The position numbers and the translations under genes are program-made. From positions 10,136 through 74,135 of the IMG/VR virus record IMGVR_UViG_3300026116_000003: DNA of 64,000 nucleotides. One strand, written 5' to 3'. This document shows, one piece after another, positions 2,075 through 38,431 of this stretch. Origin of the DNA: a virus. Position 1 is the stretch's first letter. Each line of letters opens with the position of its first letter. The notes under the pieces are model-generated. The model had not been told where the DNA came from and did not search any database. It was given only the letters and a program-made list of their open reading frames with translations.

Positions 2075-2656
2075 TTACTTAGCTGCCGGGATGCGGACGA
2101 ATTGAGCCGGCGTGAACCGAACGGCTTGCGAGCGCAAAGAATCGTTGAAGATACCGAGCGCAAGTTCCATCTTCTCTTGATTCGCTAGGGCTCGATTGTA
2201 GGGCAAGCGAGTCCAGCCGACTGTCCCGCTCGCGGTATGCTTGACGAAATAGCGAGTTGTCCAGCCGACGTCTTTGAATTCGACCTCGATTGCATCGCCT
2301 ACTTTCAAGTCAAACAGGCCGTTCTCGCTGGCGATATTCTGCCGCGCTTGCTTGCGGGCAAACTCGCTTGAGCGACGCTTTTCCTTCAAGTCCATTGCTT
2401 CGACTTGCGCCGCGTGGACCGTTGCGCTAGCGACGTTCCCCAGCACTGTCAACATGCGGAAAGGAACGGTCCAGAGTCCCTTCGATTCCCCTTCTGGCAT
2501 TACTTCAGCGACTTGATGCTGGATGGAGGGGAGCCCGAACTTGGCGAATTTGCGCCCGCGTTCAATCGTCTTGAGCCGAACCACGACTCCAGTAACTTGA
2601 CCGCGACGCCCGTTAAACCGCACTCTTGCACCGACTTTGATTTCGTTTTTTGTCAT
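2075..2656 (-). CDS. Hypothetical protein (SH3-like N-terminus)
   Basis: ORF starts 6 nt after repeat/promoter copy 1; IKVGARVRF and LKVGDAIEV beta-barrel-like starts. Confidence 0.8.
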   Translation of the reverse strand: MTKNEIKVGARVRFNGRRGQVTGVVVRLKTIERGRKFAKFGLPSIQHQVAEVMPEGESKGLWTVPFRMLTVLGNVASATVHAAQVEAMDLKEKRRSSEFARKQARQNIASENGLFDLKVGDAIEVEFKDVGWTTRYFVKHTASGTVGWTRLPYNRALANQEKMELALGIFNDSLRSQAVRFTPAQFVRIPAAK

Positions 2657-2662
2657 ACTAAG

Positions 2663-2690
2663 TTATCGACGCCCTGTGGAAATACTTTAG
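2663..2690 (-). promoter_or_regulatory. Cassette repeat copy 1; sigma28-like promoter
   Basis: CTAAA GTATTTCCACAGGGC GTCGATAA, then 6 nt, then ATG(2656); the TAA is the stop of the upstream gene. Confidence 0.75.
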
Positions 2691-3028
2691 CTCTTTGTTC
2701 CGATAAAAGTTACCGGAGTCGTAAAGTGCGCTAGGGAGAGCGGATAGCGCTCTTTTCCCAAGTGCAAAAGGACTTGCTTTGCGTGGTCGAGCGCATGGGC
2801 TTGAATCTTCGGCCAGTTGCGGTCGCTGACGAACCAGCGCTTGTTTTCTTTGTCAGCGAGCGCAAAGAAGTGGTCTGGAATCAAGTTGCGCCGCGCGTCG
2901 TCTTTGCTATAGTCGCTCAACTTAGCCGGAGTCCGTCCGCTAGCTAATATACATTCGCAGCCCTTGAGCCACGTATAAACCATCCACTCGCCCGCTTCCC
3001 GATTCAGTTGTCTTATTGTTCGTTTCAT
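2687..3028 (-). CDS. Hypothetical protein (true start MKRTIRQ at 3028)
   Basis: ATG 7 nt downstream of repeat copy 2; the longer ORF call merely reads through the repeat. Confidence 0.75.
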   Translation of the reverse strand: MKRTIRQLNREAGEWMVYTWLKGCECILASGRTPAKLSDYSKDDARRNLIPDHFFALADKENKRWFVSDRNWPKIQAHALDHAKQVLLHLGKERYPLSLAHFTTPVTFIGTKS

Positions 3029-3035
3029 ACCAGTA

Positions 3036-3063
3036 TTATCGTCAGCCCTTAGGGATACTTTAG
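3036..3063 (-). promoter_or_regulatory. Cassette repeat copy 2; sigma28-like promoter
   Basis: CTAAA GTATCCCTAAGGGCT GACGATAA, then 7 nt, then ATG(3028). Confidence 0.75.
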
Positions 3064-3242
3064 TCCAATTGAAACATATCTTTGATTGCCTCCAGGATAT
3101 CGCAATCCCGTATCGGCGGCAGGTCGCCGGCGATGTAATGCTCGAAAGCGCCCTTGCGATACCAATTGTCAAACTTCTGGCTTTTAAGCGTATCCAGTAT
3201 CTTTTGAGCCACTTTGTCTTGATTCGATTTGTTTTTATTCAT
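3060..3242 (-). CDS. Hypothetical protein (start MNKNKSNQ at 3242)
   Basis: ATG 7 nt after repeat copy 3; stop TAA lies inside repeat copy 2. Confidence 0.7.
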   Translation of the reverse strand: MNKNKSNQDKVAQKILDTLKSQKFDNWYRKGAFEHYIAGDLPPIRDCDILEAIKDMFQLD

Positions 3243-3249
3243 ACCAGTA

Positions 3250-3277
3250 TTATCGTCAGCCCTTAGGGATACTTTAG
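3250..3277 (-). promoter_or_regulatory. Cassette repeat copy 3; sigma28-like promoter
   Basis: Identical to copy 2, including the TACTGGT-ATG junction. Confidence 0.75.
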
Positions 3278-3666
3278 CTTTTCTTTTTGCACTCCGGCCC
3301 GATACCGGATTCGATTGATTCCGGAACCGTGAGCTTGCGACCGCAGCGGCAACATTTGCCGGCGTGCTGGATTTCAACTTTCCCGGCGAGCTCGTTCAAG
3401 TGAGACCAGATATACGCGAAGGCTACCGCGCTAGGAGCGCTTGGAGCAATCGAAGAGCGAAGTCCATGGCGGTAATTCTCTCCGTTGAAAATCGTCCCGA
3501 GGAACGTATAGCTCGATTCGTTGTCGGGGCCCGTAAGGACTTTGACGAAGTGGGGCGACTCCGGCTTGGGCTGACGAATCTTGTAAGTAAAGCGAGTCCC
3601 GGTCTTGAGCGACGTAGCGGTAAACGTAGCGTTCCCCGCCAGCGCGAATTCTTTAATATTTATCAT
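3274..3666 (-). CDS. DUF6011 zinc-ribbon protein
   Basis: C-terminal CCRCGRKLTVPESIESGIGPEC signature. Confidence 0.85.
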   Translation of the reverse strand: MINIKEFALAGNATFTATSLKTGTRFTYKIRQPKPESPHFVKVLTGPDNESSYTFLGTIFNGENYRHGLRSSIAPSAPSAVAFAYIWSHLNELAGKVEIQHAGKCCRCGRKLTVPESIESGIGPECKKKS

Positions 3667-3672
3667 ACAAGT

Positions 3673-3700
3673 ATATCGTCAGCCCTTAGGGATACTTTAG
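3673..3700 (-). promoter_or_regulatory. Cassette repeat copy 4; sigma28-like promoter
   Basis: CTAAA GTATCCCTAAGGGCT GACGATAT, then 6 nt, then ATG(3666). Confidence 0.75.
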
Positions 3701-4458
3701 CTGACTAACTTCATTTCAGAAGGCTTGGTCCCCGGTGCGAATCGGACTTCACTTGCGAAGCTGGCTTTTAGCGCTTTCATCGCTTCAGCTTGCTTGACGC
3801 GAAGAGCCACGATTTTCTCCCATTGCCCGACTGTGAACGTCTCGCCCTTGTAGGTGAGCTTGCCGTTCTCTTCGACGCGAAACCCCTCTGGCGTCGAGTA
3901 TTCCGACAACCAGCTCTGCTGAGTAAGTTGCTTGACGAATTCCTTGCTAATAGGGGCGGCGATGAACGTCCGATAGCGAGCTTCTGTTGCCGCTTTGATT
4001 TGCTCGACCGAGCGCTCGTGTTGAGCGACGCCGACGATTTCCCGAATCTTCTCTAGCGCTTTGGCTTTCTGCTTTGCGTCGAGCCCGAGCTCCCGGCCGT
4101 TGCCGATTTTCAGCCACTTAGTATCGCCGTAATCGCCGATAACGAGCTTCCAGCCAGTGCAATGCCCACTGGACCACTTGCTTGAGCCCGTATACATATT
4201 CTCAATTCGAACGCGAACACCGAGCGCCCTAGTCCCGTCCGTAGCCGGGTCGAGTTGCCGCAAGACCGCGAGCTCGGCTACATTTTGCTCAATTTGCGCT
4301 TGAGCGCGGGAAGCCAGTTCTTGCTCGTGCTTTACGATACGCTCGGAGGGTTCGATACCGTTCATCATTCCAGCTTCAATCGCGTCTTTGTTGATATCGT
4401 TGAATTCGGTACAGAACTGCGTGGACTTTTCGACTTTGATATTTTGATTCGTTGTCAT
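3697..4458 (-). CDS. Hypothetical protein
   Basis: 253-aa ORF with A-rich leader; stop inside repeat copy 4. Confidence 0.8.
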   Translation of the reverse strand: MTTNQNIKVEKSTQFCTEFNDINKDAIEAGMMNGIEPSERIVKHEQELASRAQAQIEQNVAELAVLRQLDPATDGTRALGVRVRIENMYTGSSKWSSGHCTGWKLVIGDYGDTKWLKIGNGRELGLDAKQKAKALEKIREIVGVAQHERSVEQIKAATEARYRTFIAAPISKEFVKQLTQQSWLSEYSTPEGFRVEENGKLTYKGETFTVGQWEKIVALRVKQAEAMKALKASFASEVRFAPGTKPSEMKLVS

Positions 4459-4492
4459 ATTTTGATTTTGTTTTTTTGCCCTTGTAAGAGAG

Positions 4493-4520
4493 TTATCGTC
4501 AGAGTAGGGAAATACTTTAG
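4493..4520 (-). promoter_or_regulatory. Cassette repeat copy 5 (leadered variant)
   Basis: CTAAA GTATTTCCCTACTCT GACGATAA; 34 nt of A-rich sequence to ATG(4458). Confidence 0.7.
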
Positions 4521-4521
4521 C

Positions 4522-4719
4522 TCAAACTTTAGAAACTCGAACGAACGCCAGCCCGTAAGAGCTAGAGTCTTGAGCGATATCGTTGTGCTTCGCCCAAGCT
4601 CTCAAAGCTTCCAGCGTGAATAATGAACCCGCGTATTGCTTCGACGTTGCTTCAACCGTTAGCTCAGTCGTCTCGTATCCGACCGCCGTTACCGTTACTT
4701 TGAATTTGTTCGTTTTCAT
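4522..4719 (-). CDS. Small hypothetical protein under the sigma54-type module
   Basis: ATG 11 nt downstream of TTGCT; stop TGA abuts repeat copy 5 (TGA-GC-TAAAG). Confidence 0.7.
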   Translation of the reverse strand: MKTNKFKVTVTAVGYETTELTVEATSKQYAGSLFTLEALRAWAKHNDIAQDSSSYGLAFVRVSKV

Positions 4720-4846
4720 ACTCCCCTAATAGCAAGCTCGATACCACTACTGTATTATCTCTAACACGTTGAGTTTAAGCCAAACCTTAAATCGACTCTT
4801 TCCCTAGTGTCCCAAATCGAGATAGACACTGTCTCAAATTTGGACT
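4717..4846 (-). promoter_or_regulatory. Sigma54 (RpoN)-type promoter module, copy 1
   Basis: TGGTAT-CGAGC-TTGCT (GG-N10-GC) at 4746-4731; IHF-like ACTCAA-CGTG-TTA at 4774-4762; two TGTC-N9-GACA-like sites at 4808-4824 and 4830-4846. Confidence 0.75.
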
Positions 4847-4851
4847 GGAGC

Positions 4852-4948
4852 TTCTTTCGCGTAGCGTCTCGCTTCGGAAAGACGTCCTAATCCGTCAGGA
4901 TTGCACGCCAGGACCGTTTGGATTTGCTTTTGAGTGTCAATATAGCGG
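4852..4948 (+). repeat. Dispersed repeat family, copy A
   Basis: GTCCTAATCCGTCAGGATTGCACGCCAGGACC...TTGCTTTTGAGTGTCAATATAGCGG. Confidence 0.8.
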
Positions 4949-4965
4949 CCTGCTAGGGTAACGTC

Positions 4966-5466
4966 CTATAACTTAAAGCTCAAAGCGTAGCGAGTCGCTA
5001 CTTCGTTCGGCTCGTAGAAGTGGCCCTCGGCTGCGGCTTGAGATACGTCTTGCCAGAGGAAGTCCGGCGGCTTAGGGGCGAGCCATTCCATCCCGAGCGT
5101 CGAGACGAAAGCCGGGAACGTCCCGGTAGAGAAGTCTACTATCTCGTTCGTATCCGGCAACGCAATCCAGACATGCATCTCGGGGATTCCTCCGGACGCC
5201 ATAGCGAGTATTGAGTTGAAGTCCGTCGGGCTCCACTTGAAAGCGAAGTGCGTCCCGCGCACGCCGTCGTCGAGATGCTTGGGGACGATTTCCCATTGCA
5301 TCGTCCCCGCTTGCAGGACGGGGCGATAGAAGCGCGGGTAACGGCTCAAGACTTCCATCCCAATCTTCGCTAAGTAAGCGCAAGCGCGGTGCGGTTCGAT
5401 ATCCGCGTGGCGCTCTTTGAAGAGCCGCTGGACCAGCTCAAAGATTCGTTGACGAGCTTCGTTCAT
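4966..5466 (-). CDS. Hypothetical protein (possible transglutaminase/papain-like fold)
   Basis: ORF; C...HVWI...IVDFS arrangement suggests a Cys-His-Asp triad; ATGA coupling to the upstream gene. Confidence 0.7.
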   Translation of the reverse strand: MNEARQRIFELVQRLFKERHADIEPHRACAYLAKIGMEVLSRYPRFYRPVLQAGTMQWEIVPKHLDDGVRGTHFAFKWSPTDFNSILAMASGGIPEMHVWIALPDTNEIVDFSTGTFPAFVSTLGMEWLAPKPPDFLWQDVSQAAAEGHFYEPNEVATRYALSFKL

Positions 5467-5930
5467 ATCCCTGCCTTTAGCTTGAGCTTTTCCAGCGCAG
5501 CTCTCGCTTTAACTTTGATTTGCCCTTCCCATTCGGTATCCTGCCGCCCGAGCGTCAGGCCGTGGTATGCGTCGAGCAAGTCCTTCAGCGCCTGCCAATC
5601 TTCGCTCGCTCGCTCGTCTCTCTTGCTTCGTCGCTTGTCGCAATCGCAAGCAACTACGTGCCCGTGTTTGTCGCACCAGTGCGTCGGTCGTTTGGGGTGG
5701 CAATCTAAACTTCCGTCAATCCGATAGTCTTGCGGCAAGTAATCTTCGGTCTCAATCCACTGGCGAATTGCTTTCGCTTCTTCCGCGCTAAAGTAAGCCT
5801 CTATCGGCCCGCGGCGAAAGAGCAGTGCGTCTCTTCGCTCTTTCGTAATCGTGTGCCCGTGGACTAGCAATCGCCCAGCTTCCGTTGCGTTGAGGTCTCG
5901 CACCAGTTTGTCTCTTGTATTGATACTCAT
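5463..5930 (-). CDS. Hypothetical protein
   Basis: ORF translationally coupled in the 4966-6950 operon. Confidence 0.7.
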   Translation of the reverse strand: MSINTRDKLVRDLNATEAGRLLVHGHTITKERRDALLFRRGPIEAYFSAEEAKAIRQWIETEDYLPQDYRIDGSLDCHPKRPTHWCDKHGHVVACDCDKRRSKRDERASEDWQALKDLLDAYHGLTLGRQDTEWEGQIKVKARAALEKLKLKAGI

Positions 5931-5931
5931 A

Positions 5932-6240
5932 TCAGTAATCTCCAGTCGGTTCGTTGCGCCCCATGACTTCGTTGTAATATCCCATCGGGTCGGCTTCTCG
6001 CGTGCAACTATCGCAGTGGTATCCGTGCGCTTTTTGATACGACGAGCGCAAGCGAGATTTGCACGTCGGGCACAATAGCGGATGATTTTCAGGAGGAAGT
6101 CCGTTCGTCTCTTTCTCTACTTTCGGGATTCCAGTGGCGCAAGCTTTGCACTTCCCGGCGTGCTCTCTAGCGTATTTCTTCGACGTAAGAGCACCGCACG
6201 AACACCGGACCGTAAACTGCTTGAATTGAAAGTTGCTCAT
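5932..6240 (-). CDS. Zinc-finger hypothetical protein
   Basis: CSC, CKAC, CPTC and CDSC motifs. Confidence 0.75.
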   Translation of the reverse strand: MSNFQFKQFTVRCSCGALTSKKYAREHAGKCKACATGIPKVEKETNGLPPENHPLLCPTCKSRLRSSYQKAHGYHCDSCTREADPMGYYNEVMGRNEPTGDY

Positions 6241-6950
6241 ATTCCAATCCTCCCATTCGCTTTGCCGCTGCCGACTTGATTGAGGCGAATCTGCTGCCCC
6301 TTAGCTCGCCCGAAAGCGTAAGCCGAGTTGCTGACTTGTTGCGCCCGAGCTTTCGAGCGAATCAATACGGGGAAGTCTTGCGCCACGCGCTTCGATATCA
6401 GAGCGTCTTTATTGACGACAATCAGCGCCCAGCAACTCGCTTCCTTCGGAGTCAGCTTCGCTTCTTCGCGCCGGTTCACTTCGATAATTCCGTCGCAGAG
6501 CCCGCGAAAGACTCCGTTCTTGTTTGCGGCGCAACTGACCATCCCGTTTTTCTCGGCGTGGTAATACGTCGAGGGAAAGACTTTCTCCAGATAGGGGAAG
6601 AGCTCCCGGCAGATGGCGACGTCCGTCGCTTCTCCGATAAAGATAGCCTTCGTGCCACTGATGATAACTTGAACGCCGAAGCACTGGCGCAGCACGCGAT
6701 AAATCCACGTATGGTAGGGCTTTTGAGCGCTCGTCTTTATCTGGATATCGGCGCGGTCGATTTCAATCGACGAGCCAGCAGAACGACCGGCCGCCATATC
6801 AATCGACGCCAGTTCAATCCCGTGCTTCATGGCCAGCTCTTTCGCTTTGCCCATCGCCGCTTCCATCTCGCCTTGCGAAGCGTTGCCGTGAGACAGCGCG
6901 AGGCACTTGCGAATCTTTTCAATCACCGCCGAGTTCATTTGATTTGTCAT
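6237..6950 (-). CDS. DUF2786 domain protein
   Basis: N-terminal IEKIRKCLALSHGNASQGEMEAAMGKAKELAMKHGI; C-terminal AYAFGRAKGQQIRLN. Confidence 0.85.
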   Translation of the reverse strand: MTNQMNSAVIEKIRKCLALSHGNASQGEMEAAMGKAKELAMKHGIELASIDMAAGRSAGSSIEIDRADIQIKTSAQKPYHTWIYRVLRQCFGVQVIISGTKAIFIGEATDVAICRELFPYLEKVFPSTYYHAEKNGMVSCAANKNGVFRGLCDGIIEVNRREEAKLTPKEASCWALIVVNKDALISKRVAQDFPVLIRSKARAQQVSNSAYAFGRAKGQQIRLNQVGSGKANGRIGI

Positions 6951-6983
6951 AACTTGTTTTTTTTGTTTCGCCCTGTGGAAAGT

Positions 6984-7011
6984 ATATCGTCAGCCCTTAG
7001 GGATACTTTAG
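6984..7011 (-). promoter_or_regulatory. Cassette repeat copy 6 (leadered variant)
   Basis: CTAAA GTATCCCTAAGGGCT GACGATAT; 33 nt to ATG(6950). Confidence 0.7.
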
Positions 7012-7012
7012 C

Positions 7013-7309
7013 TCAAATCGAGAAATCAATTACGACGCTCGCAACTGTCGCAACCACAACCGTGAACTTTACCCACCAGTGCGATTGATTCGCTACGCTC
7101 GCTCCGCCGCGGAACGCCGCGTAGTGCTCGCCCTCGTCGACTAACACTGCGCCGGGAACGGCCGCGATTACTTGAGCCGCGTAGCTTTCCGCGCTACCGC
7201 CGTGACGATAGTAGAACCCGTGGCGAGCAGTAAAGACGCCATTCCGCAAGCTTATTGAATCCGCCGATATTAGTTCCTCGATTTGCTTTATTGTCATTTT
7301 GTTTTTCAT
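7013..7309 (-). CDS. Hypothetical protein under the sigma54-type module
   Basis: Same upstream module as 4522-4719; TGA-GC-TAAAG junction to repeat copy 6. Confidence 0.75.
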   Translation of the reverse strand: MKNKMTIKQIEELISADSISLRNGVFTARHGFYYRHGGSAESYAAQVIAAVPGAVLVDEGEHYAAFRGGASVANQSHWWVKFTVVVATVASVVIDFSI

Positions 7310-7436
7310 ACTCCCCTAATAGCAAGCTCGATACCACTACTGTATTATCTCTAAGTGCTTGAGTTTAAGCCAAACCCTAAATTGAAGATTCCCCTAGTGT
7401 CTCGCTCCTAGATAGACAGTGTCCCGTTTCGAGTCA
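7307..7436 (-). promoter_or_regulatory. Sigma54 (RpoN)-type promoter module, copy 2
   Basis: Colinear with 4717-4846 at offset 2590; -24/-12 at 7336-7321; IHF-like ACTCAA-GCAC-TTA; TGTC-N9-GATA/GTCA sites at 7398-7414 and 7420-7436. Confidence 0.75.
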
Positions 7437-7712
7437 AAACCCCCGAGTTTGCCCGAAAGTTCCCCACTTGCTGATAAATTCCAGGTCCAGGAGGACTTGC
7501 TTCGTTATCGGGCTCACCGCAGGTTCTGCCGGAACGCTAGCCAGGGCGCGTGAACGCACGCTCGCTTGACGTTGCTCGACGAGCGCCGGGATTGACGCTA
7601 GGTTGGTCGAGACGTAGAGCAAACAAGCGAGAGCCAGCCAGAACGTCTTGAGACTCGCTACCGCTGGCGTCGGTCCAACCAGCACGTCGAATTCGAAAGC
7701 GTCATTGTTCAT
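7434..7712 (-). CDS. Hypothetical protein with one hydrophobic segment
   Basis: FWLALACLLYVS stretch. Confidence 0.65.
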   Translation of the reverse strand: MNNDAFEFDVLVGPTPAVASLKTFWLALACLLYVSTNLASIPALVEQRQASVRSRALASVPAEPAVSPITKQVLLDLEFISKWGTFGQTRGF

Positions 7713-7730
7713 ACTGGTAAAATCGCTAAA

Positions 7731-7922
7731 TCAATGAGCCGAAGCTACATACCACTTGTTATCTACGCCGAGCACAATTTGAAACTTTCCCTTGTGAGAG
7801 ACGAAAACAGCCGGCGGCATTCCGCAGGGGCGAGGACGAAGCTCTACAATCGCCGCCGTCAAAGGCACGCCATTTTCAATTTCGACTTGCACTAAATCAC
7901 CGACTTTTAAGTTTTTCTTCAT
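7731..7922 (-). CDS. Small hypothetical protein
   Basis: ATG 7 nt after repeat copy 7. Confidence 0.7.
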   Translation of the reverse strand: MKKNLKVGDLVQVEIENGVPLTAAIVELRPRPCGMPPAVFVSHKGKFQIVLGVDNKWYVASAH

Positions 7923-7929
7923 ACTAGAG

Positions 7930-7957
7930 TTATCGTCAGCCCTTAGGGATACTTTAG
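7930..7957 (-). promoter_or_regulatory. Cassette repeat copy 7; sigma28-like promoter
   Basis: CTAAA GTATCCCTAAGGGCT GACGATAA, then 7 nt, then ATG(7922). Confidence 0.75.
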
Positions 7958-7964
7958 CTTTATC

Positions 7965-8354
7965 TCAAAGCTTTGCAGCCGCAAGCACTTCAGCCCGGAG
8001 CTTAGCCGCGCAGGGAGCGCAGTAGCCGTGAGAGACGAAGCTCCCAAGCGCCTTGCTGCGCTCTTTGTTATCGCAAGCGCAACAGAGCCAGAGCATAATC
8101 TCTTTGCCACGACAAGCAGCTTCGCGGACGAGCGCCAGCGCCGTCAAGTCCGTAATCTTTACTAGCTCGCTCGTTGAGCACCGAGTCCAGTCTCCGCCGC
8201 TAACGGTAAATCCGGCCGGAGCGCCCGTATAGTGCAAGCGCGGGCGGATTTCAGTTTTCGTCCCGTCCAAGTCCCAAATATTGTAGCCGACGCCAGGAGC
8301 GGTCGATTCCAGAGACTTTACCGCCGCCGCAAGTTTGATTGTCATATTCTTCAT
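7965..8354 (-). CDS. Hypothetical protein with C-terminal zinc finger
   Basis: CCAC...SHGYCAPC motif; ATG 7 nt after repeat copy 8. Confidence 0.75.
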   Translation of the reverse strand: MKNMTIKLAAAVKSLESTAPGVGYNIWDLDGTKTEIRPRLHYTGAPAGFTVSGGDWTRCSTSELVKITDLTALALVREAACRGKEIMLWLCCACDNKERSKALGSFVSHGYCAPCAAKLRAEVLAAAKL

Positions 8355-8361
8355 ACCCTAG

Positions 8362-8389
8362 TTATCGACGCCCTTAGAGAATACTTTAG
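8362..8389 (-). promoter_or_regulatory. Cassette repeat copy 8; sigma28-like promoter
   Basis: CTAAA GTATTCTCTAAGGGC GTCGATAA, then 7 nt, then ATG(8354). Confidence 0.75.
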
Positions 8390-8544
8390 GGGCGATTGAT
8401 ATATCCACTGGGGTTGCGCTTAGCGTCTTCCAGCAAGAGAGCCAGGAGGAACAAAGTATCAGTCTCGCTTTGCGCCATACCGAGCGACTCCGCGCGCTTC
8501 CGGTCAGCGATTAGCGAGTCAATTATTTCATCAAAAGTTTTCAT
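8386..8544 (-). CDS. 52-aa hypothetical protein (MKTFDEIIDSLIADRK...INRP), below the ORF-track cutoff
   Basis: Manual translation; ATGA overlap with the upstream stop; TAA inside repeat copy 8. Confidence 0.65.
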   Translation of the reverse strand: MKTFDEIIDSLIADRKRAESLGMAQSETDTLFLLALLLEDAKRNPSGYINRP

Positions 8545-8723
8545 ATCATTCCGTTCGCGTCGAGCTCGTCATAGAGCGCTTTCGTCTTCGTTACCATATT
8601 ATTGTCTCGCTTGAGCCGGCGGAGCTGAACCAAGACGTCGATTACTTCCTCGTCAGTTATCGGCTCGCCCAAATACTTTGCCATAATTTGCTTCGCCGTG
8701 AGTTTCTTTGTTTTGCTTTTCAT
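8541..8723 (-). CDS. Small hypothetical protein (start MKSKTKK)
   Basis: ATGA overlap with 8720-8965. Confidence 0.65.
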   Translation of the reverse strand: MKSKTKKLTAKQIMAKYLGEPITDEEVIDVLVQLRRLKRDNNMVTKTKALYDELDANGMI

Positions 8724-8965
8724 AAAATTGTAACGCACGGAGCGAAGTGAAAATCCCGCATTGCTTGTTCGATAGTCATCCCTTCAGCTTCGCCCGTAAC
8801 AAAGTCTCCATACATCAATTCGGCTGCGTCTGCCCGAGTCTCGAAGTCTCCAGTATATTGCTCTTCGTGCTTTAGTTTTTTGCAGTCCTTGCAATCAGCA
8901 GCGTGGACAATAAAGACGCCTTTGGATTGGTCCCGCAAATTAGGTCCGAAAATTGTCAGTTTCAT
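8720..8965 (-). CDS. Hypothetical protein
   Basis: ATGA-coupled ORF; VHAADCKDC...APC. Confidence 0.7.
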   Translation of the reverse strand: MKLTIFGPNLRDQSKGVFIVHAADCKDCKKLKHEEQYTGDFETRADAAELMYGDFVTGEAEGMTIEQAMRDFHFAPCVTIL

Positions 8966-9258
8966 AAATCTTGCAAGTAGGGGTTGGGTTTGTAGGTCGG
9001 TTCGGGCTTGACGTTGAGCTTTTTGGGCATCATGGCGAGCGCTCGTTCCATCGGAGTTTGCTTTACGTCGAAGTGAATCAAGACCGGTTGGTAAACGAAG
9101 ACTCCACGACGACCGGCGTAAGCGCGCACGTCTTCGATACTTTCGAAGCGAGTTGCCTTTTCGTGATTGCGTATCGACTTGAATCCAGTCGGCGGGACGT
9201 CTACTAAATACACGTTTTTCTTCTCAAACCAAATTACCCATTTGCTATCAATTTTCAT
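8962..9258 (-). CDS. Hypothetical protein
   Basis: ATG 6 nt after repeat copy 9. Confidence 0.7.
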   Translation of the reverse strand: MKIDSKWVIWFEKKNVYLVDVPPTGFKSIRNHEKATRFESIEDVRAYAGRRGVFVYQPVLIHFDVKQTPMERALAMMPKKLNVKPEPTYKPNPYLQDL

Positions 9259-9264
9259 ACTGGT

Positions 9265-9292
9265 ATATCGACGCCCTGTGGAAATACTTTAG
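9265..9292 (-). promoter_or_regulatory. Cassette repeat copy 9; sigma28-like promoter
   Basis: CTAAA GTATTTCCACAGGGC GTCGATAT, then 6 nt, then ATG(9258). Confidence 0.75.
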
Positions 9293-9293
9293 C

Positions 9294-9575
9294 TCAAGCT
9301 TTGAAATACTTTGCGATATCGGGAAAGTCTCGCTTGAGCGACGCTACAGCGAGCCGAGCGATTTCATTATCAACTTTGCGAATCTCCGCGTTGACTTGCT
9401 TGCAAGTTGCGTCAGCCATAAGCTTTATCGCTATGGGCGTGCAACCGTCGTATTTCCCGAAAGATGCTTGCTTGCTCAAAGCGTCTCGGATTTGGACAGT
9501 ATTCCAGCCGGCGTTTAGAAGCTCGCCGATTGCTTTTTGCAGTCTCGCTACCACCGTTTCGTTTATCTCGTTCAT
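9294..9575 (-). CDS. Hypothetical protein
   Basis: ORF between repeat copies 10 and 9. Confidence 0.7.
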   Translation of the reverse strand: MNEINETVVARLQKAIGELLNAGWNTVQIRDALSKQASFGKYDGCTPIAIKLMADATCKQVNAEIRKVDNEIARLAVASLKRDFPDIAKYFKA

Positions 9576-9582
9576 ACTAGAG

Positions 9583-9605
9583 TTCAGCCCTTAGGGATAC
9601 TTTAG
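9583..9605 (-). promoter_or_regulatory. Cassette repeat copy 10, with a 5-bp deletion in the -10 box
   Basis: CTAAAGTATCCCTAAGGGCTG-AACTCTAGTATG versus copy 7 ...GGGCTGACGATAACTCTAGTATG. Confidence 0.7.
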
Positions 9606-9606
9606 C

Positions 9607-9789
9607 TCAATCTTGAAGAGCGATTGCAGCCGCGCGGGCAAGCTCGACGCCCTTGCTAATCCGGTCCCGTTCGATTAAGAGCAACGGCTTGAGCATCGTC
9701 GATACTCGCGGCGACTTGATTAAGCGGTCGAGACGGTCCCAATCGGCTCGGATAGAGCGAAACTCTGCATGGGCTTGTAAATAAGTCAT
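9607..9789 (-). CDS. Small hypothetical protein
   Basis: ORF ending in TGA-GC-TAAAG at repeat copy 10. Confidence 0.65.
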   Translation of the reverse strand: MTYLQAHAEFRSIRADWDRLDRLIKSPRVSTMLKPLLLIERDRISKGVELARAAAIALQD

Positions 9790-9795
9790 AAAAGC

Positions 9796-9978
9796 TTAGT
9801 TTTCAAAACATTGGACCCACTTAACGACTTGAGACGTAGAGCTACGGATTGTGCTCAAGACGCGCCTGGCGCGGCTCGGCTCGATATCCATCGGGAGCAA
9901 TCCTTCAAGCCGCTCGATTGCTTGTTTCATTTGCGTCAGCTCTTCCTGGATTCTATCGTATTCGATTGATTTATTCAT
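9796..9978 (-). CDS. Small hypothetical protein (start MNKSIEY)
   Basis: ATG 7 nt after repeat copy 11. Confidence 0.65.
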   Translation of the reverse strand: MNKSIEYDRIQEELTQMKQAIERLEGLLPMDIEPSRARRVLSTIRSSTSQVVKWVQCFEN

Positions 9979-9985
9979 ACTCAAG

Positions 9986-10013
9986 TTATCGACGCCCTTA
10001 GGGAATACTTTAG
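9986..10013 (-). promoter_or_regulatory. Cassette repeat copy 11; sigma28-like promoter
   Basis: CTAAA GTATTCCCTAAGGGC GTCGATAA, then 7 nt, then ATG(9978). Confidence 0.75.
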
Positions 10014-10252
10014 CTCAAAGTTGCAAAGACTTCAGAGATAACATAAGCCCAGCCCCGTCGATTGAACTGCTGACGAATCCCGTTCCCTACCATTACATTA
10101 TACGGTTCGAGATTTGCGCCGGCATCTTTGACAAGCTTTAAGATAATCCAGCGTCCGTTGTCGCTCGATATTCGATAGAATTGGCATTCCACGATTCTGT
10201 GGTCGATTTTGAATTGCCCGACTTGCGATTGACTTGTTGCTATATATTTCAT
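10010..10252 (-). CDS. Hypothetical protein
   Basis: Exactly bounded by repeat copies 12 and 11. Confidence 0.7.
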   Translation of the reverse strand: MKYIATSQSQVGQFKIDHRIVECQFYRISSDNGRWIILKLVKDAGANLEPYNVMVGNGIRQQFNRRGWAYVISEVFATLS

Positions 10253-10259
10253 ACTAGAG

Positions 10260-10287
10260 TTATCGACGCCCTTAGGGAATACTTTAG
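10260..10287 (-). promoter_or_regulatory. Cassette repeat copy 12; sigma28-like promoter
   Basis: CTAAA GTATTCCCTAAGGGC GTCGATAA, then 7 nt, then ATG(10252). Confidence 0.75.
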
Positions 10288-10294
10288 CCCTTAT

Positions 10295-11161
10295 TTACAG
10301 TCCAGCAACTTTGCGAATCAATCGAAGCTCTTTCTTCGAAGACTCTGCCGGGTCTTTCGCGTCAATTACGATATTCTCCGTTACCCCAGGGAAGCAAGCG
10401 AGCAAGTCCGCCAGCTCCCGCGCCCGCGCTTGAGCGTCGAGCGACGAGTCCAGGCAGATGTAACGTCTCGGAAACCCAGCCAGCGTCTTTACTTGCTCGC
10501 TTGTCCAGGCGAGCCCAAAGAGCGCTCCAGCGCCGGGACCGACGGCCCAAGCGTCAATAGGGCCCTCGACGATTACGACGGCGTGGCGGCACCAATCCGC
10601 TCCATAAATAACGTGTTTGAGATTGATACTCGCTTCCGTCTCGGGCGCAGACAAGTATCGCTTCGCTGCACGGTCTCCGATTGCGCGAGTTGTCCAGCTA
10701 ACGCGGACTCGCTTGCTCAATATCGGAATGTAGATTCGCCAAGCGAGTCGAGCGTCTATCCCGATTCCCTCGACTTGCCAGAGACGCTGAATCTCTTCGG
10801 GGTCAAATCCACGACGCTTGAGATAGTCCCGGTGGCAGCGTTGCAACGGGCCCCGTCCGCCGGGCTCTTTCAATCTCCCAGACCACTCCGCTTTCTCCGG
10901 CTCTTTCCCTAGCTCGTAATCGTGGAGAAACTCCCGGATGGTTGACGACGAGACTCCGAGCTTGAGCAACGTCTCCCAAACCGGATGCCAGCGACATTTC
11001 CAGCAAGCGAAAAACTTGTCAGAGAGATTGAACCCCAAGTGGTAATTTTGCGAGCCGCAAAAGGGACAAACTCTAACTTGCAGCCAGCCAGTCCGGCAAT
11101 GGTTGTGTCCCGACTCCAGATAGTCGAGTCCAGCGCCAGCTAGTAATTCCTGGATAGTCAT
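10295..11161 (-). CDS. DNA primase (zinc finger + TOPRIM)
   Basis: CPFC...CWKC zinc finger; YLKRRG; VIVEGPIDA, ALFG, ICLDS and KDPAE TOPRIM motifs; start MTIQELL. Confidence 0.85.
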   Translation of the reverse strand: MTIQELLAGAGLDYLESGHNHCRTGWLQVRVCPFCGSQNYHLGFNLSDKFFACWKCRWHPVWETLLKLGVSSSTIREFLHDYELGKEPEKAEWSGRLKEPGGRGPLQRCHRDYLKRRGFDPEEIQRLWQVEGIGIDARLAWRIYIPILSKRVRVSWTTRAIGDRAAKRYLSAPETEASINLKHVIYGADWCRHAVVIVEGPIDAWAVGPGAGALFGLAWTSEQVKTLAGFPRRYICLDSSLDAQARARELADLLACFPGVTENIVIDAKDPAESSKKELRLIRKVAGL

Positions 11162-13475: not shown

Positions 13476-13483
13476 TTGTCGTT

Positions 13484-13517
13484 GGTTAGAAAGTATACCT
13501 TTCTAACCCGGTGTCAA
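13484..13517 (-). promoter_or_regulatory. Operator-like palindrome overlapping a sigma70-type promoter of the sigma-like gene
   Basis: GGTTAGAAAG-TATAC-CTTTCTAACC (13484-13508); TTGACA (13517-13512)-N16-TACTTT on the minus strand. Confidence 0.6.
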
Positions 13518-13542
13518 CTCTCAAAAGATAATAAGACGTTAG

Positions 13543-38045: not shown

Positions 38046-38431
38046 TCGTCAACCGTGCCGACCCAAGTAACCGACGCAACCCGGCTCCCGCCGCCAGCCA
38101 GTGACCGGTTGAGCGCCGTCAGCCCGCCTTGCGTATCAAGCACCATCGCCTGCTGGCCGTAGCGGGTAAGAGCAAGGTTTAAGTCCACCTTCGACTCGAA
38201 AGAAGCGCCGACGCTGCCAGCTTTCTCGTTCGTTGTGCGCGGGTCCCGTATCGCGTAAAAGTGGGCAGCCAGCCAGCGCTCGATTAGCTCCAGCCGCTCG
38301 ATAGAATATCCGGCAATCGCGCAGACTTCAGTAACGAGCTCCGACGCGGTAAAAATAAAAGGGTCGAGGTCGATTGTAACATCAACCTCGATGATTCCGG
38401 CGACAAGCGCTGGAGTAGTGCGAACAGCCAT
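38042..38431 (-). CDS. Head-tail connector (DUF4054-like adaptor)
   Basis: IERWLAAHF, LALTRYGQQAMVLDTQGGL. Confidence 0.8.
   Translation of the reverse strand: MAVRTTPALVAGIIEVDVTIDLDPFIFTASELVTEVCAIAGYSIERLELIERWLAAHFYAIRDPRTTNEKAGSVGASFESKVDLNLALTRYGQQAMVLDTQGGLTALNRSLAGGGSRVASVTWVGTVDE

Follow-up and report, generated by a model that had tools for sequence, protein, structure and literature searches.

A repeated control block in a soil phage genome resembles an enhancer-dependent sigma-54 promoter and carries a second, phage-type promoter box

Promoters at which sigma-54 acts together with integration host factor (IHF) are known from glnHp2 with NtrC, from nifH with NifA and from glmY-glmZ with GlrR, the latter having TGTC-N10-GACA sites plus IHF. 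The late promoters of bacteriophage T4 consist of a single -10 box, TATAAATA, which is read by gp55, a minimal sigma factor. Among other phages, Pseudomonas phage YuA has a sigma-54-like promoter region that is consistent with mapped 5' ends (PMC10914365, citing Ceyssens et al. 2008). In the phylum Bacteroidota, the SM4 (sigma-54) promoters of Flavobacterium psychrophilum have the typical -24/-12 form and are experimentally supported (PMC9723704), and genes for chaperones, proteases and envelope functions are over-represented in the sigma-54 regulon (PMC12316311). Here, we analyse a control block that stands upstream of two small genes in a 64,000-nt window, bases 10136-74135 of a complete 74,135-bp phage genome from soil (IMG/VR record IMGVR_UViG_3300026116_000003) with 90-bp direct terminal repeats. 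The block had originally been predicted to be a complete enhancer-dependent sigma-54 promoter module, present in two copies. In our analysis, each block reads as a promoter cassette that is complete in itself, can be swapped and serves one small accessory gene in an early/middle array, and it holds a second promoter box beside the sigma-54-like one.

The two copies, A and B, lie on the minus strand and align without a gap at an offset of 2590 nt, with 104 of 121 positions identical (86%) between 4713-4833 and 7303-7423 of the window. The original prediction had described a duplication free of insertions and deletions over 4717-4846 and 7307-7436, and this was confirmed, with 104 identical positions out of 130 (80%) over that longer span. 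Identity reaches 93% in the 54 nt next to the ATG (50/54) and falls to 17-31% just beyond either block end. The two genes behind the blocks, and the larger genes that adjoin them, are unrelated to one another; the repeat is therefore confined to the control region, and a segmental gene duplication was ruled out because the flanking proteins are unrelated. The distal end of copy B runs into the stop codon of gene 7434-7712, which lies upstream. Three copies are present in a sister phage (G001; 75,073 bp) whose syntenic DNA is 90-96% identical; they include the orthologues of copy A (74413-74543, 91% identical) and of copy B (2531-2650), which brings the total to five distinct copies in three paralogous lineages across the two phages. 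In every copy the block lies directly upstream of an ATG and is oriented with the gene, and the start context GAGT-ATG-AA is kept. Each of the five heads a different small ORFan of 63-98 aa that has no Pfam or PHROG match.

Block positions refer to the coding (minus) strand and are counted back from the A of the start codon. A -24 element, TGGTAT, occupies -27 to -22 and a -12 element, TTGCT, occupies -16 to -12, which places GG at -26/-25 and GC at -14/-13 with a 10-bp spacing. The form TGG(T/C)AT-N5-TTGCT, with its GG, GC and spacing, is kept in all five copies, and the enhancer-dependent layout proposed at the outset is in this sense present. The box matches 9-10 of the 12 consensus positions of TGGCAC-N5-TTGCW; two copies in the sister phage read TGGCAT, which is nearer the consensus and is the same form as in Bacteroidota sigma-54 boxes. 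Given the positions of GG and GC, the predicted sigma-54 start is either the A of the ATG or the T that precedes it, as had been claimed to within 1 nt. A start at this point agrees with the leaderless spacing of two further promoter classes of the phage, namely a sigma-28-like repeat (about ten promoters) and the motif AGATAATA (about five), both of which are described below. Only the block copies, among the genomic sites that match the box, stand before a gene at the +1 distance, and a box would fall within 2 nt of the leaderless position by chance at a rate of ~1e-3, a rough post hoc estimate that carries no correction for other motifs one might have sought. The last 12 nt before the ATG are G-rich in the block, in contrast to the A-rich leaders of other phage genes.

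Further upstream, a GACA-N-TGTC dyad lies at -114 to -106 (centre -110) and a second GRGACA at -94 to -89, 22 bp from the first. These candidate activator sites span -89 to -116, the usual range for a bacterial enhancer-binding protein (bEBP; 80-150 bp), and in the phage genome the dyad occurs only in the two blocks and at one intragenic site. The two TGTC-N9-GACA-like 17-mers that the original prediction had placed at centres of about -119 and -97, 22 bp apart, are present, but their right halves are imperfect (GAYA-like). The spacer of GlrR/QseF-type sites, TGTC-N10-GACA, was not found in the block, where the half-sites are separated by N9 (with imperfect right halves), N13 or N1. Between the upstream sites and the box, CAA-N4-TTA is found at -52 to -43, with CAA and TTA invariant in all five copies and a variable N4, at which copies A and B differ in all four positions; the earlier observation that the copies of this IHF-like element differ only in the N4 thus holds for A and B and extends to the sister phage. 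Compared with the IHF consensus WATCAA-N4-TTR, which is that of E. coli, ACTCAA-N4-TTA agrees at five of the first six positions and in TTA.

Any sigma-54 promoter in this phage must use host proteins, since the whole phage genome lacks rpoN, a bEBP gene and HU/IHF, and a six-frame search found neither a GAFTGA motif nor an RpoN box. The absence of an enhancer-binding protein, noted originally for the window, therefore holds for the complete genome. A phage-encoded activator was considered and rejected: the sole Sigma54_activat match is the clamp loader, for which the best Pfam match is DNA_pol3_delta2. Bacteroidota is the probable phylum of the host, to judge from the relatives of the terminase and from the near absence of Shine-Dalgarno sequences in the phage, whose leaders are A-rich. 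The nearest terminases of cultured phages are those of Cellulophaga, Croceibacter and Riemerella phages, and the terminase relatives in bacterial assemblies are mostly from Bacteroidota, including Pontibacter, Hymenobacter, Adhaeribacter, Chitinophaga and Flavihumibacter. An archaeal or flagellate host was dropped on the same two grounds. In the candidate host genera or genomes named for their related terminases, rpoN was found in five of five.

Sequences like those of the block occur at sigma-54 promoters of the probable host phylum. In 401 Bacteroidota genomes, GACA-N-TGTC followed 60-90 nt on by TGGYA-N6-TTGC gave 14 matches, compared with five for the reversed control. A scan for TGTCTCA plus a box gave 17 matches, compared with seven for its control. 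Three of the GACA-N-TGTC matches are intergenic and have textbook boxes in the correct orientation (TGGCAT or TGGCAC, N5, TTGCA or TTGCT); the 17-mers lying 70-80 nt upstream of these boxes share as many as 15 of their 17 positions with phage copies. A search of candidate host clades for the upstream pairs, as proposed with the original prediction, thus yielded near-identical 17-mers at Bacteroidota sigma-54 promoters but did not identify the bEBP. In a sample of the phylum, groES often has TGGCAC-N5-TTGAT or TGGTAC-N5-TTGCA boxes with CTGACA-N4-TGTCAG dyads near them, and thus GACA/TGTC half-sites are common around the sigma-54 promoters of the phylum; many of the groES boxes end in TTGAT, not TTGCT. 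The groES dyads often lie downstream of the box, and other genomes of the same sample have CIRCE/HrcA elements at groES instead.

The original prediction overlooked a second box, AGATAAT at -41 to -35, which does not change among the five block copies although its flanking bases do. It is a member of a single-box class, AGATAATA, that occurs 16 times in the 74-kb genome against about two copies expected by our estimate. The strand of the motif mostly follows that of the local genes, with 13 copies on the minus strand and three on the plus strand in stretches that have plus-strand genes. A number of copies precede a start codon by 5-8 nt, among them those at uvsY, a dnaN-like gene and DUF932, and others lie farther upstream of several more genes (for example at window positions 1426, 11335, 15689 on the plus strand, 54633 and 60419, and at genome positions 1661, 2691 and 6806). 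The motif is also abundant in three distant relatives, which keep the phage sigma protein at 46-48% identity and lack both the block and the sigma-28-like repeat. A motif that is enriched, oriented and clade-wide in this manner makes it very unlikely that the AGATAAT of every block copy is accidental. In the block, AGATAATA spans -41 to -34, six bases upstream of the -24 element and 33 nt from the ATG, compared with 5-8 nt at the clearest members of the class; these 33 nt belong to the best-conserved part of the block. Since each block has a box that could fire without a host activator, the original claim that the two genes are switched on only when a host bEBP is active goes too far.

It is a distinct possibility, although one that we rate clearly below an even chance, that only AGATAATA is active. 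The box would then be read by the phage sigma protein or by the usual reader of the motif, with RNA starting about 27 nt upstream of the start codon; relative to that RNA start, the GAGACA/TGTC sites would be centred near -63 and -82, and they would bind an ordinary activator of the class-I type or a repressor, and the sigma-54-like stretch would serve as an operator or leader element. This explanation draws on the abundance, orientation and ATG spacing of the motif, on its presence in relatives that lack the block and on its invariance within the blocks; a sigma-70-type scan also yields TTGGCT-N18-GATAAT in the block, and no host factor has to be assumed. However, it leaves to chance the placement of a -24/-12 box set exactly for a leaderless start, the bEBP-like distal sites and the likeness of these to the upstream sites of host sigma-54 promoters. 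The eighth base of the box is A, C or T in the blocks, compared with A in all 16 full copies elsewhere, and the resulting leader, which shows no RNA structure, would be G-rich next to the ATG, a composition unlike that of the other leaders of the phage. Moreover, the GACA-N-TGTC dyad is found at no other phage promoter, so a phage-wide regulator is not evident. A model based purely on sigma-54, for its part, leaves the AGATAAT match unexplained.

The steps of the sigma-54 reading are all inferred from sequence. Host RNA polymerase with sigma-54 would bind the TGG(T/C)AT-N5-TTGCT box, and a host AAA+ enhancer-binding protein would occupy the TGTCTC/GAGACA sites some 90-120 bp upstream, with the intervening DNA, including the CAA-N4-TTA element, being bent. 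ATP-driven opening would then allow RNA to start at the ATG or one base before it, which would give a leaderless message. AGATAATA would probably act as a second, phage-timed input, and the cassette would in this way combine the clock of the phage with the state of the host. Proteotoxic or envelope stress is a plausible candidate for the host signal, because the sigma-54 regulon of Bacteroidota covers chaperones, proteases and envelope functions. Such a tandem cassette with two inputs explains all of the observations, yet it is the most elaborate of the models. We put the chance of a functional sigma-54 box, whether it acts by itself or in tandem, at only slightly short of even. The fuller proposal, that two or three single-gene cassettes are wired to host sigma-54 and its bEBP, and that the bound holoenzyme gates the phage-timed promoter until the host activator releases it, appears unlikely to us as a whole.

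Several points weigh against the sigma-54 reading. A scan for sigma-54 boxes had been proposed with the original prediction; done with a simple consensus, it recovered the box in both blocks, but about 20 GG-N10-GC sites in the 74-kb genome score as well or better, and the box alone is therefore not significant. The GG and GC are conserved in five copies from two phages, as had been proposed for relatives, but the distant relatives (sigma protein 46-48% identical) lack the block entirely. The conservation is also low in power, because only three lineages underlie the five copies and the two phages that carry them are 90-96% identical in syntenic DNA. A single metagenome scan returned only contigs identical to the sister phage and no new block variants, the anchor being in the middle of the block and blind to both promoter boxes and the upstream sites. 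The IHF reading borrows the consensus of E. coli while the host is probably a member of Bacteroidota. On the host side, the enrichments of 14 over 5 and of 17 over 7 are modest, the exact arrangement of the upstream sites of the phage was found in none of 121 Chitinophagales genomes, and its perfect palindrome version was found once in five genomes. No bEBP gene lies beside the look-alike host promoters, which have leaders of about 30 nt, and leaderless mRNAs amount to 5.5% in the studied flavobacterium (PMC9723704). Finally, AGATAATA could explain transcription without sigma-54 or a host activator, with a leader of about 27 nt.

The phage promoters that surround the blocks bear on how the cassettes are built. 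A bipartite repeat like those of sigma-28/FliA promoters (CTAAAGTAT, 14 nt, CGATAA) occurs in about 12 copies on the minus strand between window positions 2650 and 10290. In about ten of these, the ATG follows 6-7 nt past the second element, a spacing that implies that the predicted messages are leaderless. Several of the repeats begin at the stop codon of the preceding gene or one base past it, and in the same manner the promoter of the next cassette begins at, or one base past, the stop codon of the ORFan behind a block (Table 1). The gene A homologue of the sister phage is preceded by a sigma-28-like repeat instead of the block, and another, extra small gene stands behind the orthologous block. 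Because of the placement of the gene A homologue, the block and the sigma-28-like repeat are predicted to be interchangeable promoter modules that are joined to genes at the ATG. An additional block-plus-ORFan cassette is present at 5302-5620 of the sister phage and has no counterpart in window positions 4500-7700 of the phage studied here.

Table 1. Window coordinates of the features of the two cassettes and of the phage sigma gene
Feature	Position	Strand	Basis or remark
Cassette copy A, control block upstream of ATG 4719	4720..4836	-	Ungapped repeat with copy B
Upstream activator-like sites, copy A: GAGACA-N-TGTCT dyad 4825-4835, GGGACA 4808-4813, distal 17-mer to 4846	4808..4846	-	
IHF-like ACTCAA-N4-TTA, copy A	4762..4774	-	Flanks kept in 5/5 copies
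AGATAATA box in copy A, phage single-box promoter class	4753..4760	-	Motif scan
Sigma-54-like -24/-12 box TGGTAT-N5-TTGCT, copy A	4731..4746	-	Consensus scan, position
Gene A, 65-aa ORFan behind copy A	4522..4719	-	No Pfam, NCBIfam or PHROG match
Sigma-28-like repeat, one base past gene A stop, heads next cassette	4492..4520	-	Repeat search
Cassette copy B, control block upstream of ATG 7309	7310..7426	-	Ungapped repeat with copy A
Upstream activator-like sites, copy B: dyad 7415-7425, second GAGACA 7398-7403	7398..7436	-	
IHF-like ACTCAA-N4-TTA, copy B	7352..7364	-	Flanks kept in 5/5 copies
AGATAATA box in copy B	7343..7350	-	Motif scan
Sigma-54-like -24/-12 box, copy B	7321..7336	-	Consensus scan, position
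Gene B, 98-aa ORFan with hydrophobic C-terminal tail, behind copy B	7013..7309	-	No Pfam, NCBIfam or PHROG match
Sigma-28-like repeat, one base past gene B stop	6983..7011	-	Repeat search
Phage sigma-70-family protein, 189 aa	12906..13475	-	Candidate reader of AGATAATA and sigma-28-like boxes

The mosaic array of the two phages, with a gene A homologue behind a sigma-28-like repeat and an extra gene behind an orthologous block, also suits another explanation, in which the block is a recombination joint or boundary for cassette shuffling, or serves replication or packaging, its GAGACA repeats resembling iterons; such repeats are natural crossover points. We consider this improbable. The block always lies directly before an ATG in the orientation of the gene, with GAGT-ATG-AA kept, and its best-conserved part is the promoter-proximal 50 nt; there are two or three half-sites only and no iteron array, and shuffling at promoter repeats is itself compatible with a promoter role. 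Another idea, which the high conservation upstream of two genes might suggest, is that the block gives rise to a structured small RNA or a leader of the riboswitch kind. It is hardly credible and was rejected, given that window positions 2500-10500 have no Rfam match at E <= 1, folding energies differ from those of shuffled controls by about one standard deviation at most (z of -0.6 to -1.1; -0.6 for the 33-nt stretch between AGATAATA and the ATG) and the few substitutions between copies are not compensatory.

Nearly all genes of the phage lie on the minus strand. The structural genes are of the siphovirus type (terminase, portal, MuF, tape measure and a gpJ-like tip), and the replication genes have a T4 flavour, comprising gp32-like and UvsY-like genes, a clamp loader, a family-A polymerase, a UDG-exonuclease and a DnaB-like helicase. 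The phage encodes a single, divergent sigma-70-family protein of 189 aa, in which region 2 alone is detectable; a PDB sequence search with it gave weak matches to SigA regions 2-3 only, and a single-sequence structure model was set aside and not used because of its pLDDT of 50. To our knowledge, the probable host phylum has neither flagella nor FliA, and the sigma-28-like promoters may be read by this phage protein. Host sigma-A promoters (TAnnTTTG) showed no gene-strand enrichment in the phage. Upstream of the sigma gene (13476-13520) lies TTGACA-N16-TACTTT, overlapped by a perfect palindrome, TTAGAAAG..CTTTCTAA, which looks like an operator on the promoter of the sigma gene itself. One sigma-28-like copy, at 9575-9605 on the minus strand, has a 5-nt deletion that removes CGATA of the second element while the ATG spacing is otherwise kept, and it may be a dead promoter. 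Directly upstream of copy A, at 4852-4948, there is a dispersed intergenic repeat with a hairpin-like core, ATCCTGACGG-(A/T)-TAGGA; similar sequence is found just upstream of the ATG of the UDG-exonuclease gene (genome 5416) and of the gene that starts at 38431.

A search of a phage database with the block DNA gave no match. Of three pattern scans of IMG/VR, the first found the sister phage only, the second gave chance matches, and the third gave the sister phage, chance matches and one other pair of phages with upstream arrays of their own. In these two IMG/VR phages (51-53 kb), about six repeats of the TGACAG(C/T)TGCC type lie 20-120 nt upstream of TGGCAT/TGGTAT-N5-TTGCT. The arrays are in a long intergenic region (5440-5610 in one of the phages) with no clear open reading frame behind it, and this region is a candidate for another phage sigma-54 enhancer module.

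If the sigma-54 reading is correct, a phage of the lytic type from a poorly studied phylum would tie a few accessory genes to a host signalling ATPase that it does not itself encode, which would give the virus a direct route for sensing the physiology of its host. Should AGATAATA alone be active, the block would amount to a phage promoter of the ordinary kind, accompanied by an activator site. With its small size and modular build, the cassette lends itself to reporter tests; its upstream sites could be used as bait for an uncharacterised Bacteroidota bEBP and its regulon.

Compared with the described systems, the block shares with the glnHp2, nifH and glmY-glmZ promoters a box with a -24 GG and a -12 GC, TGTC/GACA sites 80-150 bp upstream and an element resembling a bend site between them. 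It differs from the glmY-glmZ type in the spacing of its half-sites (N9, N13 or N1, not N10), and from all three in its predicted leaderless start, in the second promoter box six bases upstream of the -24 element and in belonging to a virus whose genome has no gene for either the sigma factor or the activator; IHF of the E. coli type, moreover, is not established in Bacteroidota. AGATAATA is like the T4 late box in that it is one A/T-rich 8-mer for which no -35 element can be detected, in a phage that encodes a small, divergent sigma protein with region 2 alone detectable, and this phage, like T4, has clamp-loader, gp32-like and UvsY-like genes. Unlike T4 late promoters, many of the starts here are leaderless, and the likeness of the two systems, including that of the 189-aa protein to gp55, is one of layout. 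The sigma-54-like box itself is close to those of F. psychrophilum SM4 and other Bacteroidota, where the boxes have the typical -24/-12 form, TGGCAT and TGGTAC variants occur, GACA/TGTC dyads lie nearby and the bEBPs are host-encoded. In contrast, the promoters of these bacteria have leaders of about 30 nt and many at groES end in TTGAT, and the site arrangement of the phage was not found in the sampled genomes.

Of the phage systems, YuA is the nearest. Sigma-54-dependent transcription of a phage is already known from YuA, and the phage described here would likewise rely on host sigma-54 for part of its transcription; what would be new is the probable host phylum and the second box beside the -24 element. 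Unlike the YuA region, the cassette belongs to a phage of another probable host phylum, occurs in several exchangeable copies, each ahead of a single small ORFan, has a predicted leaderless start and is known from sequence alone. If its sigma-54 box proves functional, the cassette would join YuA in hinting that sigma-54 promoters with leaderless starts are a recurring design among phages.

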